NCBI GenBank assembly: GCA_016235155.1
Contig: JACRLW010000025.1
Coordinates: 2,504-66,503 of the forward strand
Source: Planctomycetota bacterium
GTDB taxonomy: Bacteria > Planctomycetota > UBA1135 > UBA2386
Length of the DNA: 64,000 bases
Direction: 5' to 3'
Both the position numbers and the translations under genes were made by a program. The first letter of the stretch is position 1; each line of letters opens with the position of its first letter. The notes under the pieces are model-generated. The model worked only from the letters and a program-made list of their open reading frames with translations. It was not told where the DNA came from and did no database searches. Positions 3,852 through 59,412 of this stretch are shown piece by piece.

Positions 3852-4038
3852 CCTCAACGGCTACCACCCGTCTGCGACCGCGGACGACCGCGCCCGATCC
3901 TCGTCTCAGTGCTGGACGAGGACGACGCCGAGGGACCGACCGCAGCGACGGGATCGCGCCGGCGCCCGCGCATGGCGGCGCGCGGCGAGCGGAGAGCAGT
4001 AGCGGGCACCACGACGCACCCGATGGTCGCGGAGCGTC

Positions 4039-5316
4039 ATGCACGACCGAACCCTCGCCACGCTGCGCGGTGATCGCGCCGACCCATGGCACGGCCTGCT
4101 GCGCGTCGGCGTCAACGCCGCGGCGCGCGTCGGTCTTGGGATCGGAGTCGCGAGGACCGCGGGCACGGAGTCGTTCGCGATCTGGGTGGCTTTGGTCACC
4201 GTCGAGGTCCTGCTCTCGACCCTGCTGATGGCCGGCTGGTTGACGGCGCTCGGTTCGATCGCCCCGCGCCTGCCGGTGGCCGACGCGGAGAACCTGCTCG
4301 CGCACGGGTGCCGGCGCGGCCTCGTCCTCGCGACCGGGACGACGCTGGCGCTCGTCCTGGCGACGCCGCTGGCCACTCTCTGCGGCGTGCCGGTCGCGGT
4401 CCACCTCGCGTTCGTCGCGGCGACGGGTGCCTGGCTCGCCTCGCAAGTGCACGCGACGGTGCTCGTCGCCGCGTACCGCAGCGCGTCCGCGGTGCGAGCC
4501 CAGGCCCTCGCGTACCTGCCGCCGCTCGCCGGGATCGGGGCTTCGGCACTCACCGGAGCCGATCCCCTGGTTGCGGTGTTCCTCGCGAGTGCCGGGGGTC
4601 AACTCGGCGCGGCCCTGTGGATGCGGCGCGCGATCCCGCGCGCGACGACGCCGACCCTTCCGACTCGTGTCGCCGAGGAGGTGGCGGCCGTCGGTCGCGC
4701 CGCGCTCCTCGGCTCGGTCGCGAATTCGGTGTGCACGCGCGTGCAACCGTTCGCGCTCGCCTGGCTCGGCGGTCCGATCGCCGTGGCCTTGTTCGGGGCC
4801 GCGAACACGCTGGCGGGACCGCTGCGCGTCCTGGCGGGCGCCGCCGGCGACGTGCTGCGTCCGCGGCTCGCACGCCACCAAGGGCCGCTCGGCGACCCGG
4901 CGGTTGCGCGACGTCTGCTCGCCTTCTCTTTCGCCGCCGTCGCGGCGGGAGGCATCGCGCTCGTCGCGGGATGCGTGCTGTTCGGCGAAGGGATCGGGAC
5001 GCGGATCTTCGGCGGGCGCTTCCTCGGCATCGGCGAGGTGATGCCGGCCGCGGCGATCTTCGTGACGATGGCCGCCGTCGTGCACGTGCTGGTCGTCGCC
5101 CTGCAGACCCGTTCGCTCGAGGGCACGCAGTTGGCGACACGGGCGCGGTCGATCGCTGCGGCGGCGACCCTCGTGCTCGTCGGGCCGAGTTGCGCTCTCG
5201 ACGGCGCGCGAGGCGCCTTCGTCTCGATGATCGCCGGCGAGGTGACGTTCCTCTCGATCGTCGCACGTTCCCTGTGGCGTTCGGCCGACGGCGCGATCGA
5301 GCCGGCCCGACCATGA
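4039..5316 (+). CDS. Wzx/MOP-type polysaccharide flippase-like membrane protein
   Basis: Many TM helices; flippase-like motif WLGGPIAVALFGAANTLAGP. Confidence 0.65.
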   Translation: MHDRTLATLRGDRADPWHGLLRVGVNAAARVGLGIGVARTAGTESFAIWVALVTVEVLLSTLLMAGWLTALGSIAPRLPVADAENLLAHGCRRGLVLATGTTLALVLATPLATLCGVPVAVHLAFVAATGAWLASQVHATVLVAAYRSASAVRAQALAYLPPLAGIGASALTGADPLVAVFLASAGGQLGAALWMRRAIPRATTPTLPTRVAEEVAAVGRAALLGSVANSVCTRVQPFALAWLGGPIAVALFGAANTLAGPLRVLAGAAGDVLRPRLARHQGPLGDPAVARRLLAFSFAAVAAGGIALVAGCVLFGEGIGTRIFGGRFLGIGEVMPAAAIFVTMAAVVHVLVVALQTRSLEGTQLATRARSIAAAATLVLVGPSCALDGARGAFVSMIAGEVTFLSIVARSLWRSADGAIEPARP

Positions 5317-5936
5317 CCGCGACCTTTGGTGCTCTCTGGCGCGTCACGCCGCGAGTCTGGCCGTCGCCGCCAGGCCGGCTGCACGATCCCGGCGGGGACG
5401 TGCACGTGTTCCGCGCCGACCTCGACGACCCACGGCGGAACGTCGACCTCTATCGCCTGATGCTCGCCGACGCCGAACTGCGCCGCGTCGACGACGTCGG
5501 GCACCCGCACACGCGACGTCGCCTCTCGATCGCGTTCGGCCTGGCACGCATCACGCACGCGGCGCACGTGCTCGCACCCGGCGAGGCGGCGCTCGACGTC
5601 GTCAGCGCGCGGCTCGGATCCGTCGCGGTGTTCGCGGCTTCGCGGGGACCACGGGTCGGAATGGCGCTGGTGCCGGCGGCCGCGGGAACGCGCGGCGTCG
5701 CCCTCGCCGCTCTCGAGGCGATCGGGCACGCAAAGGGTCGCGCCACTGACCCGGACGCGGTCGACACGGCGGGCGTGGGGCAGACCCTGGCGCGCGGACG
5801 GGCCGCGCTCCTCCGCGTCGAGGTCGGCGGCAGCGCGTGGAACGTGCAGGTCCTCGGCCTCGCGCCCGACGTCTGCCTCGTGATCGCCGGGCCCGGACCA
5901 CTCCGCACGCTGCGCTGCTGGGCGCTCGGAGCGTAG
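5313..5936 (+). CDS. Degenerate Sfp-type 4'-phosphopantetheinyl transferase-like protein
   Basis: ATGA coupling; N-terminus DVHVFRADLD...LADAELRR resembles Sfp/AASDHPPT; GxD(I/V)E and WxxKEA motifs degenerate. Confidence 0.5.
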   Translation: MTATFGALWRVTPRVWPSPPGRLHDPGGDVHVFRADLDDPRRNVDLYRLMLADAELRRVDDVGHPHTRRRLSIAFGLARITHAAHVLAPGEAALDVVSARLGSVAVFAASRGPRVGMALVPAAAGTRGVALAALEAIGHAKGRATDPDAVDTAGVGQTLARGRAALLRVEVGGSAWNVQVLGLAPDVCLVIAGPGPLRTLRCWALGA

Positions 5937-5945
5937 CGGCCGTCG

Positions 5946-6293
5946 TCAGCCTTCTGGTACGAGCGCGACGACGCCGTCACGCTCGACGACGCGGCCGGCA
6001 CTGCGCGCACGTTCGAGTACCTGGGCCGAGAGCAAGAGCGATGCGGCGGTCCGCTCGGCGAACCAATTCAGCAGGTCCTCGCGCGTCGTCGCCCCGCCGA
6101 GTCCGGCGAGGACCGCGACCAACGCATCGATGTCCGCCGACTCGCCCCCGCGCGAGAGCGCGTCGAACTCCTCACCAGCGCCGCCGCAGCACGGTTCGAA
6201 GTTGGAACCGCAGATGCTGCACTGCTCGTGACCGTGCACGCGCACGGTGGTGCTCAGCCGGTGGCACGCGGAGCAGCGGACGCGGCGCGCCAT
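5946..6293 (-). CDS. Small Cys/His-rich metal-binding protein with helical C-terminal domain
   Basis: CSAC...VHGHEQCSIC...PCCGG; starts 8 bp after the Nfu gene stop. Confidence 0.7.
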   Translation of the reverse strand: MARRVRCSACHRLSTTVRVHGHEQCSICGSNFEPCCGGAGEEFDALSRGGESADIDALVAVLAGLGGATTREDLLNWFAERTAASLLLSAQVLERARSAGRVVERDGVVALVPEG

Positions 6294-56943: not shown

Positions 56944-58016
56944 GTGCTGCCGGAGCTGCGCCTGAAGATCCGGGTCCACGGCCGCCATCCGTGGTTCTTC
57001 CGCAAGATGATCGTGCGGCCGGAGCGGGTCGTGCCTGCGGGTTCGTTCGTGCGCGTCGCCGACCGCGACGGCCGGGCGGTCGGAGTCGGCTTCTACAACC
57101 CCCGCACCGATCTCGCGCTGCGGATGCTCGGGCGAGCGGGTGATGCAAACGCGAGCGAGGACGCGGATGCGATGCTCGCGGCCCTGCTCGACTCCGCGAT
57201 CGCGCTGCGCGACGACGTCCTGCAGTCGTGGCGCAGGTCTTCGCCCTCGGCGTGCAGAAGCGCATCGAGCGCATCGGCGAGCGACTGCTCGCACGGTGGC
57301 CGAAGGCGCGCCTGGTCCTCACGCTCGATGCGACGGCGAAGGAGCGCGAGGGGCTCGAGCCGCTGCCGCCGCCGGGGCGCGTCGAGGTGAACGTCGTCGA
57401 ACACGGCGTGCGCTATGCGGTGCGCGCGGGCCACGGCCACAAGACCGGCTTCTTCGCCGACCAGCGCGACAACCGCCAGCTCGTGCGGCGCCTGAGCAAG
57501 GGTCGCAAGGTGCTCGATCTCTGCTGCAATGCCGGCGGCTTCGCCATCAACGCGGTGCGCGGCGGCGCGCGCGAGGTCGTCGCCGTCGACCTCGACGAAG
57601 AGAGCGTCGCGCGGACCCGCGAGAACGCGGCGCGCAACGATGCGAAACTCGAGGTCCGTCACGGCGACGCGTTCGACGCCTTGCGCGAGCTGAAGTCCGG
57701 CTCGTTCGACCTGCTGGTCCTCGATCCGCCGAAGTGGGCCAACGGCAAGGACGAGGTCGAAGCCGGCGTGCGGCGCTACTTCGACTTCAACCGTCTCGCG
57801 TTCGACCGCGCCGGTCGCGGCGCGCTGGTGCTGACGTGTTCGTGTTCGGGCGCGGTCAGCGAGTCGCGCTTCCTCGCCGTCCTCCGTGACGCCGCCACCG
57901 AAGCCGGCCGCGACGTGCGCCTGCTCGACGTGAGCGGCGCGGGGCCTGACCACCCGATCGCGCTCGAATGCCAGGAGACCCGCTACCTGAAGGCCGTGCT
58001 CCTGGAGCTGCGATGA
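56944..58016 (+). pseudogene. rlmI: RlmI-like class I SAM rRNA methyltransferase, split by a deletion/frameshift near 57225
   Basis: PUA part (HPWFF..GFYNP) in one frame; GHKTGFFADQRDNR, VLDLCCNAGGF, LDPPK, PDHP, ETRYLK in another; linker EGDGLxGLxVD missing. Confidence 0.8.
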
Positions 58017-58024
58017 TCGACGAC
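57956..58024 (+). repeat. Direct repeat copy 1 (69 bp; rlmI 3' end plus ATGATCGACGAC)
   Basis: 60/69 identical to 58476-58544 by manual alignment. Confidence 0.9.
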
Positions 58025-58104
58025 AAGCCTTGGCCCGCTGTGCCGGCGCGGATCGCTTCCCCGAGGCATCACCGCGTGGTCCTGAAGCCGGGGCTGCTGC
58101 CGAG

Positions 58105-58536
58105 ATGAGTTCCCAAGACGCTTTCCCCGGCGGCGAAGTCATCGTCTATCGAGCGCCGGAAGGGCAGGTGCGGGTCGACGTGCGCCTCGAACGGGAGACC
58201 GTCTGGTTGACCCAGCAGCAGATGGCTGAGTTGTTCGGACGCGAGCGCTCGGTCATCACCAAGCCTGTCCGCAACCTGTTCAAGGAAGGGGAGCTTGGCG
58301 AGGAGAGCAATGTGCACTTCTTGCACGTTGCCGGGTCCGACAAGCCGGTCGGCTTCTACAGCCTCGACGTCATCATCTCGGTCGGCTACCGCGTCAAGTC
58401 GCTCCGCGGCACGCAGTTCCGCATCTGGGCGACGACCACGCTCCGCGAGCATCTGCTGAGCGACTGGACCAAGAAGATCGCGCTCGATTGCAAGGAGACC
58501 CGCAATCGGAAGGCGGCACTCCTGGGGCTGCGATGA
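58105..58536 (+). pseudogene. RhuM-family N-terminal fragment fused to a duplicated RlmI C-terminus
   Basis: ETVWLTQQQMAELFG, YSLDVIISVGYRVKSLRGTQFRIWAT; ends IALDCKETRNRKAALLGLR (RlmI: IALECQETRYLKAVLLELR). Confidence 0.8.
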
Positions 58537-58544
58537 TCGACGAC
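58476..58544 (+). repeat. Direct repeat copy 2 (69 bp), 520 bp downstream of copy 1
   Basis: gatcgcgctcgattgcaaggagacccgcaatcggaaggcggcactcctggggctgcgatgatcgacgac. Confidence 0.9.
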
Positions 58545-59102
58545 GCGGCGCTGCGCGCGGTCCTCGACCCCGTGCCCTCGGCCTTCGACCTGCGCGCGGA
58601 CCTGCGCCTCGCCGCGGTCCTCGTGCCGTGGATCGTCCAGGACGGTGCGGATCACCTGCTGCTGACCCGCCGCCGCGAGGATCTCCCCCAGCATCCCGGC
58701 CAGATCTCCTTTCCCGGCGGTGCGCGCGAAGGCGACGAGGACCCGGTGAGCTGCGCCTTGCGCGAGAGCGAGGAGGAGATCGGGATCGATGCGCGCCGCG
58801 TCGTCGTGCTCGGGTCCCTGCCGCCGCGCGTGAGCATCGGAGGCTTCTGGGTGCACGTGATCGTCGGTCGCGTTCCGGCCGACGTGGTGCTGCGACCCGA
58901 TCCGCGAGAAGTGGCGAGCGTGCGGGCCTGGCCGCTCGCCGTGCTGCGTGATCCGACGCGCTGGCAGGAGCGCGCGCCGGCGATCGATCCGGCGCGGCGG
59001 CCGATGCCGCACCTCGATTGGGAGGGCGAGACCTTGTGGGGACTGACGGCGAGGTTCGTGCTCGACCTGTGCGGGCGTTGCTACCCTCGCGCGCCCAGGT
59101 GA
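58533..59102 (+). CDS. CoA pyrophosphatase (NUDIX, NudL-like)
   Basis: AAVLVP, LLTRR, HPGQISFPGG, ALRESEEEIGI, LWGLTA. Confidence 0.92.
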   Translation: MIDDAALRAVLDPVPSAFDLRADLRLAAVLVPWIVQDGADHLLLTRRREDLPQHPGQISFPGGAREGDEDPVSCALRESEEEIGIDARRVVVLGSLPPRVSIGGFWVHVIVGRVPADVVLRPDPREVASVRAWPLAVLRDPTRWQERAPAIDPARRPMPHLDWEGETLWGLTARFVLDLCGRCYPRAPR

Positions 59103-59133
59103 TGGACCGAAGGTCAACGACGCGTCGTGCCGC

Positions 59134-59325
59134 GTGACGGTCGAAGATCACCCTGCGCCCTTGAAGGATCTGGAGCTCTTCCGTCGGTTTCGCCTCGACG
59201 AGGAACTCAACGCGATCACGTGGCCGTCCGGCGCCGACCTCGCGCCCGAGTTCCTCTACGAGCAGGCATCCCGAGGAGCGGATTCCGGCGGCAGTCCGCG
59301 CAGGCGAAGCAATCGGCCGGCATGA
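59134..59325 (+). pseudogene. DUF2442-family C-terminal fragment
   Basis: PLKDLELFRRFRLDEELNAITWPSGADLAPEFLY; N-terminal half absent. Confidence 0.7.
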
Positions 59326-59412
59326 CCCGACCTGGACTCACTCGCTGCGGCCGCCCGAGGCAGCAGGGAGCGACGTCGAAGACGGGGCCACGGTGACGGG
59401 TCCAGCCCGGCC

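Follow-up and report, generated by a model that had tools for sequence, protein, structure and literature searches.

A 451-bp insert with a fragment of a RhuM-family gene separates an rlmI-like rRNA methyltransferase gene from a NUDIX hydrolase gene in a Planctomycetota bacterium, and it is bracketed by an imperfect 69-bp duplication of the very junction that it entered. We read this arrangement, including the history and the joining proposed below, as the scar of an "insertion with long target duplication," and we put the probability of this reading at roughly two in three. The locus lies in a stretch of 64,000 nucleotides (here called the window) of contig JACRLW010000025.1, and all coordinates are positions within the window. 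The features are as follows.

56944..58016, + strand: rlmI-like 23S rRNA m5C methyltransferase gene with PUA and SAM-methyltransferase domains (Pfam PUA_3, Methyltrans_SAM)
57956..58024, + strand: repeat copy 1, spanning the final 19 codons of rlmI, the ATGA stop/start overlap, and the first four NUDIX codons
58013..58108, + strand: 31-codon open reading frame (ORF) of 4 duplicated NUDIX codons and 27 orphan insert codons; no family match
58025..58475, + strand: 451-bp insert, missing from three same-genus genomes and lower in G+C than its flanks
58105..58536, + strand: 143-codon ORF of the RhuM N-terminal domain, 17 orphan bases, and a decayed RlmI tail (Pfam Virulence_RhuM)
58476..58544, + strand: repeat copy 2, in which the second rlmI tail is decayed and the ATGA and NUDIX start are intact
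58533..59102, + strand: NUDIX hydrolase gene, closest to CoA pyrophosphatase (Pfam NUDIX)

Alignment of the two repeat copies, which lie 520 bp apart, gave 60 identical bases of 69; no mismatch falls within the first 12 bases or the last 18. The runner-up direct repeat in the surrounding 2.5 kb was 32 nt long and 75% identical. Local alignments of the flanks to the left and right of the 69 bp scored no higher than shuffled controls, and the repeat edges are therefore sharp. The rlmI stop (TGA, 58014 to 58016) overlaps the ATG at 58013. The 31-codon ORF that begins there terminates at an ATGA shared with the RhuM start at 58105, and the 143-codon fusion ORF runs in frame into the duplicated RlmI tail and ends at the ATGA that also starts the NUDIX gene at 58533. 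The preliminary description of this DNA had reported the repeats with their spacing, nine mismatches, and content, the 31-residue peptide, and the truncated RhuM ORF, and realignment and the reading frames bore out all of these. The top NCBIfam matches of the rlmI-like gene were 23S rRNA C1962-type methyltransferases (below the cutoff, with a partial query), and the NUDIX gene reached 107.9 bits with NF007980, below the cutoff of 134.

The genome is a metagenome bin of 152 contigs (85.5% complete), and its rlmI gene is frameshifted at 57225/57226. Contigs of two metagenome runs hold 88 extra letters at exactly this point, and relatives have about 88 more bases there than the window; the frameshift is an 88-base assembly omission and not a broken gene. 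This omission, only 730 bp upstream on the same contig, and the nature of the bin would both favor the view that the metagenome assembler produced repeat and insert by a chimeric join. Against that view, separately built Logan contigs bridged the left junction in four of four runs and the right junction in three of the four, and one 17.3-kb contig matched positions 57226 to 59400 without any difference. No joint that skips the insert was found among the contigs of the four runs, a result of little weight since contigs drop rare variants. The four runs belong to one study, and one may be the source sample. An artefact is extremely improbable.

The empty site, with a single copy, was present in three of three same-genus genomes, where rlmI directly overlaps the NUDIX start; both window copies align to the same 65 to 70 bp in L033, L034, and L035. 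NUDIX orthologues lie directly 3′ of rlmI in relatives. The two genes occur without any insert between them in 10 of the 11 relatives that have both on the fetched locus, and the eleventh (L013) has an unrelated reverse-strand gene there. The rlmI tail of copy 1 keeps a motif conserved in the 11 relatives and is, judged by this conservation, the functional one; copy 2 carries substitutions at conserved residues of the tail (Y to N, L to R). At seven of the nine differing positions, copy 1 has the base of the relatives and copy 2 a unique base. The reverse pattern was seen at no position, and two positions were ambiguous. At three further positions the copies agree with each other, yet differ from all three same-genus relatives. 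On this pattern of bases, both copies are shown to derive from the junction of this lineage itself, and copy 2 from a copy-1-like sequence. The earlier suggestion that a small cargo gene entered an operon by a junction-duplicating route is supported by the empty site in these genomes and by the retention of rlmI through copy 1 and of the NUDIX start, with its upstream context, through copy 2.

The insert has a G+C content of 60 to 63%, versus 70 to 74% in the flanks. No RhuM homologue was found in the three same-genus genomes at an E value of ≤1e-10, and the best protein relatives were 73 to 77% identical in the fetched loci and 81 to 87% identical in the protein database. By these comparisons, the insert is shown to be foreign. 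Scans of metagenome contigs and of genome contigs with the RhuM fragment (80 loci each) yielded no source above 77% identity. Neither the first 99 nor the last 10 to 17 insert bases matched any of 109 RhuM loci or this genome, and the 31-codon ORF had no homologue in the same 109 loci or the rest of the genome.

The RhuM fragment comprises approximately 118 to 121 N-terminal codons, and its homology ends at the motif REHLL. It matched Pfam Virulence_RhuM (PF13310) with 55.1 bits (cutoff, 33.7) over profile positions 18 to 60 of 252, scored 53.9 bits in the genome-wide Pfam scan, and was a PADLOC candidate (PDC-S05, PDC-S23). Full-length RhuM proteins continue beyond the N-domain into a C-terminal part; among the full-length relatives closest to the fragment, this part is a Fic/DOC domain. 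Here, only the N-domain is present. To our knowledge, no nuclease activity is known for the RhuM family. In the N-domain, 28 of 29 columns conserved at ≥85% in 104 homologues are retained; the exception, H54P, replaces a 99%-conserved histidine, and the fragment may already be inactive. The dN to the nearest homologues was 0.085 to 0.14 with a dN/dS of 0.10 to 0.15, and pairs of intact RhuM homologues gave a dN/dS of 0.08 to 0.31. A first structure model of the 143-residue product, from 18 sequences, was unusable (pLDDT 46). A second, from 120 sequences, reached a pLDDT of 77 with a confident core (residues 30 to 100) and a long C-terminal helix; Foldseek against the PDB returned no match at an E value of ≤0.001, and winged-helix regulators were weakly similar (TM, ∼0.3).

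We looked for mobility machinery at and around the insert. In the Pfam scan the RhuM fragment was its sole content, and a recombinase scan located nine tyrosine-recombinase matches in the genome, none of them on the contig of the window or on contig C52, which carries a second RhuM gene. The absence of an integrase or transposase, stated in the preliminary description, was confirmed by these scans. An insertion sequence or transposon was rejected, as there was no transposase, no terminal inverted repeats were found in the insert, and the duplication is 69 bp long. A tRNA attachment site or a known RNA was likewise rejected, since the insert contains no tRNA and no Rfam family. A diversity-generating retroelement also has a gene 3′ end repeated a short distance downstream with mismatches; here, there is no reverse transcriptase (no RVT domain in the scanned ORFs), and the nine mismatches are of mixed kinds and not adenine specific, so this candidate was rejected too. 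Classical end joining is without support, as a Ku gene was not found, although in an 85.5%-complete genome this does not show its absence.

According to our model, foreign DNA with a RhuM-family gene would have joined the chromosome at NUDIX codon 4/5, and at least 69 bp of target would have been duplicated, namely the final 19 codons of rlmI with the ATGA overlap and the first four codons of the NUDIX gene. The left copy preserves rlmI, and the right copy gives the NUDIX gene its start codon and upstream context, so that neither host gene was broken; the second rlmI tail, redundant in the right copy, would have decayed afterwards. The insertion probably brought a whole RhuM cassette, with about 80 bp of upstream sequence and about 340 codons, as at other bracketed loci, and selection would have held this cassette for long. 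A later internal deletion, running from RhuM codon ∼119 to 121 up to where the right copy now begins, would have produced the in-frame 143-codon fusion ORF. The joining itself was presumably independent of a recombinase, with the ends of a linear fragment joined at staggered target positions by illegitimate (break-repair) recombination, and would be neither transposition nor site-specific integration. The ATGA chain from rlmI through the 31-codon ORF and the RhuM fusion ORF to the NUDIX gene would permit coupled translation; judging from these overlaps, the insertion would allow translational coupling and be nonpolar, as had been proposed. Insertion of the whole cassette followed by deletion is favored because decay has gone much further in the duplicated tail, with nine changes in 51 nonselected bases, than in the RhuM N-domain; this comparison uses a small 51-base clock and assumes neutral evolution of the copy 2 tail. 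We infer the deletion step, since no full-length RhuM gene was found at this junction in any relative or strain. Capture of a gene fragment in a single step, with selection keeping the N-domain, would fit the same data.

Insertion with long target duplication was reportedly described for restriction-modification genes by Nobusato et al. in 2000 (Gene 259:99). Furuta et al. (2010; NAR 38:2428, PMC2853133) describe it for the same class of genes, with duplications ranging from >30 bp up to roughly 400 bp, fusions of genes at the joints, and an absence of mobility genes, and suggest a dependence on DNA breakage by the inserted restriction enzymes. They define it by an empty site in a relative, repeats of >30 bp, no mobile-element genes, and an insert of <20 kb. 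At our locus, we found the empty site in three of three genomes, 69-bp repeats on a single target, and a 451-bp insert without mobility genes. Their operational screen demands homologues of R and M genes in the insert, and the cargo here is a RhuM fragment. Another paper (PMC3457768) recognizes the pattern for "other DNAs" too. The idea of an undescribed mobilization mechanism, raised in the preliminary description, gives way to this match with the route presented in PMC2853133. What is already described is the route; its molecular mechanism remains unexplained in the literature, and we found no paper linking "target duplication" with "homology-facilitated illegitimate recombination."

Our locus shares with the restriction-modification inserts direct repeats of >30 bp that align to one empty-site sequence, the lack of mobility genes, repeats that overlap gene ends, and fusions at the joints. 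It differs in its cargo, a RhuM-family fragment and not a restriction or modification gene, in its size of only 451 bp, and in its older repeats, 87% identical compared to mostly 94 to 100% in the published tables. RhuM is a candidate defense gene often embedded in type I restriction-modification operons. Known accessory genes of such operons are PrrC and, between hsd genes, RhuM and Fic/DOC genes, according to the accessible parts of PMC9881135 and PMC12707154. The gene family is the same, and elsewhere RhuM adjoins duplicated hsdR or hsdM starts; however, the host operon here pairs two housekeeping genes, for an rRNA methyltransferase and a NUDIX hydrolase, and is no defense locus, and flanking duplications go unmentioned in those parts of the two papers.

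Both Pfam RhuM matches of this genome, at the window locus and on C52, are bracketed by repeats; the C52 paralogue has 342 residues and a Fic domain. Among RhuM loci from genomes of the same order, 6 of 29 were bracketed, compared to 1 weak case in 29 NUDIX control loci. For RhuM loci from metagenomes and genomes the count was 16 of 91, versus 4 of 88 and 7 of 84 neighboring control intervals; in this genome, the background was 3.6% of 1-kb intervals. The bracketed fraction is thus about one RhuM gene in six. These locus counts are not independent, because many of the duplications of hsdR starts may go back to a small number of ancestral events and have spread with the whole operon. The duplicated targets vary by locus (hsdR starts, an hsdM start, a histidine-kinase 3′ end, and tRNA 3′ ends), and at many loci RhuM stands alone between repeats of unrelated sequence, 37 to 170 bp long. 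The cargo at other bracketed loci is a full-length RhuM gene, with copy 2 beginning 0 to 15 bp past the stop codon. The RhuM codon at the joint differs between loci, and some joints are in-frame fusions to a borrowed start codon, as in L167 and L153, where RhuM is fused to the first 15 to 17 hsdR codons. An ATGA is duplicated at the RhuM locus L169, and in Thermithiobacillus tepidarius the duplicated target is an ATGA junction; for the latter, the empty-site search gave fragmentary matches in relatives, and a multicopy element adjoins the locus. At two loci (L048, L050) RhuM is bracketed by tRNA 3′-end repeats, which are a hallmark of integrases. The bracketed RhuM genes need not all have taken a common route.

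Among the other local repeats of this genome, the architecture seen at our junction recurred only at C52 (RhuM) and at C138, which holds a HicB-like cassette. Those on C6, C35, C118, and C141 were set aside as tandem paralogues or partial gene copies. C80 carries a true diversity-generating retroelement, a 134-bp repeat with a reverse transcriptase. The expectation of further junction duplications thus held for the second RhuM gene here, for RhuM in many genomes, and for the HicB-like cassette, and failed for the downstream DUF2442 fragment, for which no flanking repeat marking a second scar was found. What is new is that RhuM genes are repeatedly bracketed by long target duplications, which are undescribed in the parts available to us of the literature on RhuM with type I restriction, direct repeats, and integrases.

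The locus could alternatively be the eroded remnant of a tyrosine-integrase island that had RhuM as end-proximal cargo and entered at the rlmI 3′ end. The attP of such an island would have an rlmI-tail-like arm, attL and attR would be the 69-bp imperfect repeats, and later deletion of the integrase and most of the cargo would leave an att-flanked element without its own recombinase. Integrase-less, att-flanked remnants of islands exist, such islands typically show long imperfect repeats at the 3′ ends of genes, and the nine tyrosine-recombinase matches of the genome could act in trans. The tRNA 3′-end repeats at two RhuM loci point the same way. Moreover, islands of the MGIVchHai6/SGI1 family, integrated at the trmE 3′ end, often carry rhuM (PMC7449626); like our locus, they have an RNA-modification gene with direct repeats at its 3′ end, carry RhuM as cargo, and leave the end of the host gene preserved. 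However, our insert has no integrase, its repeat is target derived, and its cargo is cut off right at the repeat. Among the 11 relatives with both genes on the locus, none had an integrase-bearing element at this junction; this is a small sample, in which 10 lack an insert and L013 has its unrelated gene. Copy 2 shares three lineage-specific bases with copy 1 and otherwise has unique, nonconservative differences, which points to a copy of the target that has decayed and not to an arm of an element. The unrelated repeats and varied RhuM joining codons elsewhere also speak against fixed element ends. We regard an eroded island as unlikely.

Tandem duplication followed by deletion or substitution is a published alternative to insertion with long target duplication (PMC3457768). 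In this scenario, a segment from the rlmI tail through the NUDIX gene to a then-downstream RhuM gene would have been duplicated, the new joint placing RhuM codon ∼120 beside the rlmI tail; the first NUDIX copy would then have been deleted and the downstream RhuM lost. The spacer between the NUDIX gene and pheT is indeed variable, with the DUF2442 fragment here, ∼100 bp in G001, 3.6 kb in G002, and >6 kb in G003. Yet at least three independent events are required, no RhuM remnant lies 3′ of the NUDIX gene, no RhuM was found in the three genus relatives, and further repeats were not found around the spacer. This course of events is highly improbable, and insertion with long target duplication remains our preferred reading.

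The non-restriction cargo of this locus and the bracketing of about one in six RhuM genes suggest that insertion with long target duplication extends beyond restriction-modification genes. RhuM-family genes could even be a class of recombinase-less cassettes that enter gene junctions and the first codons of genes and spread by means of long target duplication, a speculative idea that we consider decidedly doubtful. The host start codon may then often be borrowed, with the duplicate rebuilding the downstream gene, and the bias toward RhuM would stem from something that the cassette or its protein (DNA-binding N-domain, Fic/DOC domain) does to promote or stabilize insertion, not from the survival of rare accidents. 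If so, the mechanism would be independent of a cargo-encoded nuclease and open to study with a one-gene cassette. The practical yield is modest: natural junctions for the study of joints, and a reminder that such repeats need not mark integrase sites. The present locus is a clean example with an empty site, a one-gene, non-restriction cassette in a housekeeping operon, and it shows that operons can acquire defense genes while the neighboring genes survive.

Realignment of the junction between the rlmI-like 23S rRNA methyltransferase gene and the NUDIX hydrolase gene bore out the 69-bp direct repeat (9 mismatches) that the preliminary description had placed at an ATGA junction. The two copies are spaced by 520 bp and are identical over the first 12 and the last 18 bases. 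Each holds the last 19 codons of the rlmI-like gene, the ATGA stop/start overlap, and 4 further codons (MIDD). The runner-up direct repeat within the surrounding 2.5 kb measured only 32 nt (75%), and no homology was detected outside the repeat edges, where alignment was no better than with shuffled sequence. The reading frames recovered were the same as those first described:

56944-58016, + strand, rlmI-like gene
57956-58024, copy 1 of the repeat
from 58013, + strand, 31-codon ORF whose TGA overlaps the ATG at 58105
58105-58536, + strand, 143-codon RhuM ORF, its terminal ATGA also starting the NUDIX gene
58476-58544, copy 2 of the repeat
58533-59102, + strand, NUDIX hydrolase gene

Judging from the sequence, it is plausible that the three ATGA overlaps could give coupled translation across rlmI, the insert, and the NUDIX gene.

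The source genome is a bin of 5.34 Mb in 152 contigs (85.5% complete). The stretch is present in five groundwater runs, and we compared the contigs of four of them; all come from one study, and one run may be the source sample. The left junction was bridged by contigs in 4/4 runs and the right junction in 3/4, a 17.3-kb contig was identical to the window over 57226-59400, and no joint skipping the insert was reported among the contigs of the four runs. A misassembly that made both repeat and insert is thus given hardly any weight. The frameshift seen in rlmI falls exactly at 57225/57226. Since contigs from two runs carry 88 extra letters between these positions and the relatives are approximately 88 bases longer there, the apparent frameshift is an assembly omission of 88 bp, and the rlmI gene is probably intact.

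Within the 451-bp insert (58025-58475), G+C content is 60 to 63%, compared with 70 to 74% around it. RhuM homology covers insert bases 100 to 441; bases 1 to 99 and the last 10 to 17 had no match in 109 RhuM loci or in the source genome. The 143-codon ORF matched Pfam Virulence_RhuM above threshold, at profile positions 18 to 60 of 252 only, and also two candidate defence families of PADLOC, PDC-S05 and PDC-S23. Its homology to relatives ends at residue 118 to 121, and full-length RhuM relatives have about 330 to 345 residues. The closest proteins in the protein database were 81 to 87% identical to the fragment, and none of the fetched loci exceeded 77%. A RhuM homologue was found in 36/301 genomes of the same order and in none of the three genus relatives. 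Searches of the insert for terminal inverted repeats, tRNAs, known RNA families, and promoter-like or terminator-like sites found none, and none of the 9 tyrosine-recombinase matches in the source genome lies on the window's contig.

The empty site that the earlier description had proposed to look for is present in the genus. In 3/3 other genus genomes, the rlmI end overlaps the NUDIX start by ATGA or GTGA in a single junction copy, and both copies from the window align to the same 65 to 70 bases in each of these three relatives. Copy 1 retains the RlmI tail motif that is conserved among the 11 relatives examined; the tail in copy 2 carries nonconservative replacements (Y to N and L to R), and its last 18 bases, comprising the NUDIX start and its upstream context, are unchanged. 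Compared site by site, the two copies share 3 positions at which they differ from all three genus relatives. Among the 9 differences between the copies, 7 have the relatives' base in copy 1 and a unique base in copy 2, 0 show the reverse, and 2 are ambiguous. Because of this pattern, copy 2 is a decayed duplicate of the lineage's own junction and not a foreign look-alike. The insert is foreign, the target is duplicated, both host genes are preserved, and a recombinase is absent.

Copy 2 differs from copy 1 by 17.6% over 51 nonselected bases, and 38.6% of the four-fold degenerate sites of rlmI differ from the nearest genome (dS 0.58). If the divergence of copy 2 is neutral, the duplication would be old, dating back over much of the interval since the two species split. 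By comparison with these 51 bases of the copy 2 tail, the RhuM N-domain seems less decayed. Of the 29 columns with a conservation of 85% or more among 104 homologues, it retains 28, the exception being H54P (H54 is at least 90% conserved among 120 sequences); by our own estimate, equal neutral decay would change about 10 of the 29. Against its nearest homologues, dN was 0.085 to 0.14 and dN/dS 0.10 to 0.15, and dN/dS between pairs of intact RhuM homologues was 0.08 to 0.31. This unequal decay is most simply reconciled by insertion of a whole RhuM gene that remained long under selection, and by a later deletion that joined RhuM codon ~119-121 to the decayed rlmI tail. Alternatively, selection may have acted on a stand-alone RhuM N-domain. 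Short RhuM ORFs are common (7764 database matches of 78 to 251 aa, many on short contigs); their C termini are ordinary RhuM sequence, unrelated to the tail of the window ORF.

Whole-genome self-comparison of the source genome for local direct repeats, a scan also suggested by the preliminary description, yielded similar duplications around the only other RhuM gene and around a HicB-like gene. The loci with repeat-flanked ("bracketed") genes referred to below are as follows:

contig C52, 10591-11960 (fetched locus L036, 5592-6961), full-length RhuM of 342 aa with a Fic/DOC domain, bracketed by a 79-bp repeat, 86% identity
contig C138, 86854-88004 (L074, 1555-2705), opposite strand, cassette of a HicB-like antitoxin gene between 104-bp copies, 90% identical
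Thermithiobacillus tepidarius DSM 3134 (L169), 3948-5076, 57-bp repeat, 86% identity, around RhuM
Prochlorococcaceae genome bin (L167), 3956-5960, in-frame RhuM fusion
L153, 1103-2242, in-frame RhuM fusion

In the C52 repeat, an upstream ORF ends, an ATGA follows, and an HsdR-like ORF begins (weak REase_I match). The left copy extends into an HsdR-like N-terminal fragment of 89 codons, and the frame of the right copy is closed by a stop codon. This block apparently splits an AAA_21 ATPase gene, whose N-terminal piece lies before it and whose C-terminal piece is at L036 6969-7613. What is duplicated at C138 is a 3' gene end (transglutaminase-like), and the distal copy is decayed; the architecture is that of the window's insert, but the cargo is not RhuM. 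Other repeats in the source genome were also observed. On C80 (10607-12771; L073), in a diversity-generating retroelement, the last 134 bp of an FGE-sulfatase-domain gene reappear (87% identity) after the reverse-transcriptase gene, and on C141 (10903-12093; L072) the first 129 bp of a YhgA/Rpn-like (Transposase_31) gene are repeated (90%) just past its end. In the window itself, a 63-codon ORF at 59134-59325, in the NUDIX-pheT spacer, matches DUF2442 over the C-terminal half only (profile positions 38 to 70 of 72), and no flanking repeat was found around it. This spacer is a variable spot, measuring ~100 bp, 3.6 kb, and >6 kb in three other genomes.

Bracketed RhuM genes were seen in 6/29 loci of the same order, versus 1 weak case in 29 NUDIX control loci, and in 7/47 metagenome loci with enough flank. 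With one rule and matched windows, 16/91 RhuM loci were bracketed, versus 4/88 and 7/84 neighbouring control intervals; these RhuM loci are not independent: hsdR-start repeats are common to several, which may trace back to the same events. The background in the source genome was 3.6% of 1-kb intervals. The duplicated target was the start of hsdR in L041, L087, L114, and L190, the start of hsdM in L056, the first 26 codons of another gene in L165, the final 18 codons of a histidine kinase gene in L158, the 3' end of another gene in L043, and tRNA 3' ends in L048 and L050. The T. tepidarius locus parallels the window junction: its repeat pairs the 18 final codons of the preceding gene with an ATGA, and the two ATGAs are the starts of RhuM (first copy) and of an hsdS-like gene (second copy). 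Directly downstream is a multi-copy element. In L167 and L153, the duplicated first 15 to 17 codons of the downstream hsdR are fused in frame to RhuM and lend it a start codon, and hsdR proper begins at the second copy. In L114 (3654-6707), three diverged hsdR starts follow one another; RhuM separates the first from the second, and ~1.5 kb of other sequence separates the second from the third. The arrangement resembles multiple insertions arrayed at a single site. Copy 2 at bracketed RhuM loci usually starts 0 to 15 bp past the RhuM stop codon.

Because the loci differ in target, repeat length (37 to 170 bp), and cargo end-point, we infer that joining would have occurred by recombinase-independent illegitimate recombination at staggered target positions. 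A Ku gene was not found in the source genome (85.5% complete). An eroded integrase islet at the rlmI/NUDIX junction draws some support from the tRNA-bracketed RhuM loci, but copy 2 is target derived and the relatives carry no element at this junction, which makes such an islet unlikely. Tandem duplication followed by deletions, akin to the tandem duplication and recombination given as an alternative route in passages of PMC3457768, appears less probable still.

Insertion with long target duplication was reportedly treated already by Nobusato et al. in 2000. The preliminary description was right in proposing a route that duplicates the junction and spares the genes; its suggestion that the mechanism is undescribed did not hold, as the pattern had been published by Furuta et al. 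(2010; PMC2853133). That study describes restriction-modification genes of types I to IV inserted with target duplications of >30 bp up to ~400 bp, without mobility genes and with empty sites in related genomes; repeats overlap gene 3' ends, and genes are fused at the joints. Its authors state that the mechanism is not known and propose a property such as double-strand breakage. Passages elsewhere report RhuM as enriched beside inverting type I specificity genes and also between hsd genes (PMC9881135), and as often carried by islands integrated at trmE (PMC7449626). No report of target duplications around RhuM was found in the literature searched, mostly listings and passages. The window case is an added example of this published kind of insertion, differing from those of Furuta et al. 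by its RhuM cargo in a housekeeping operon. [quoted passage not shown]
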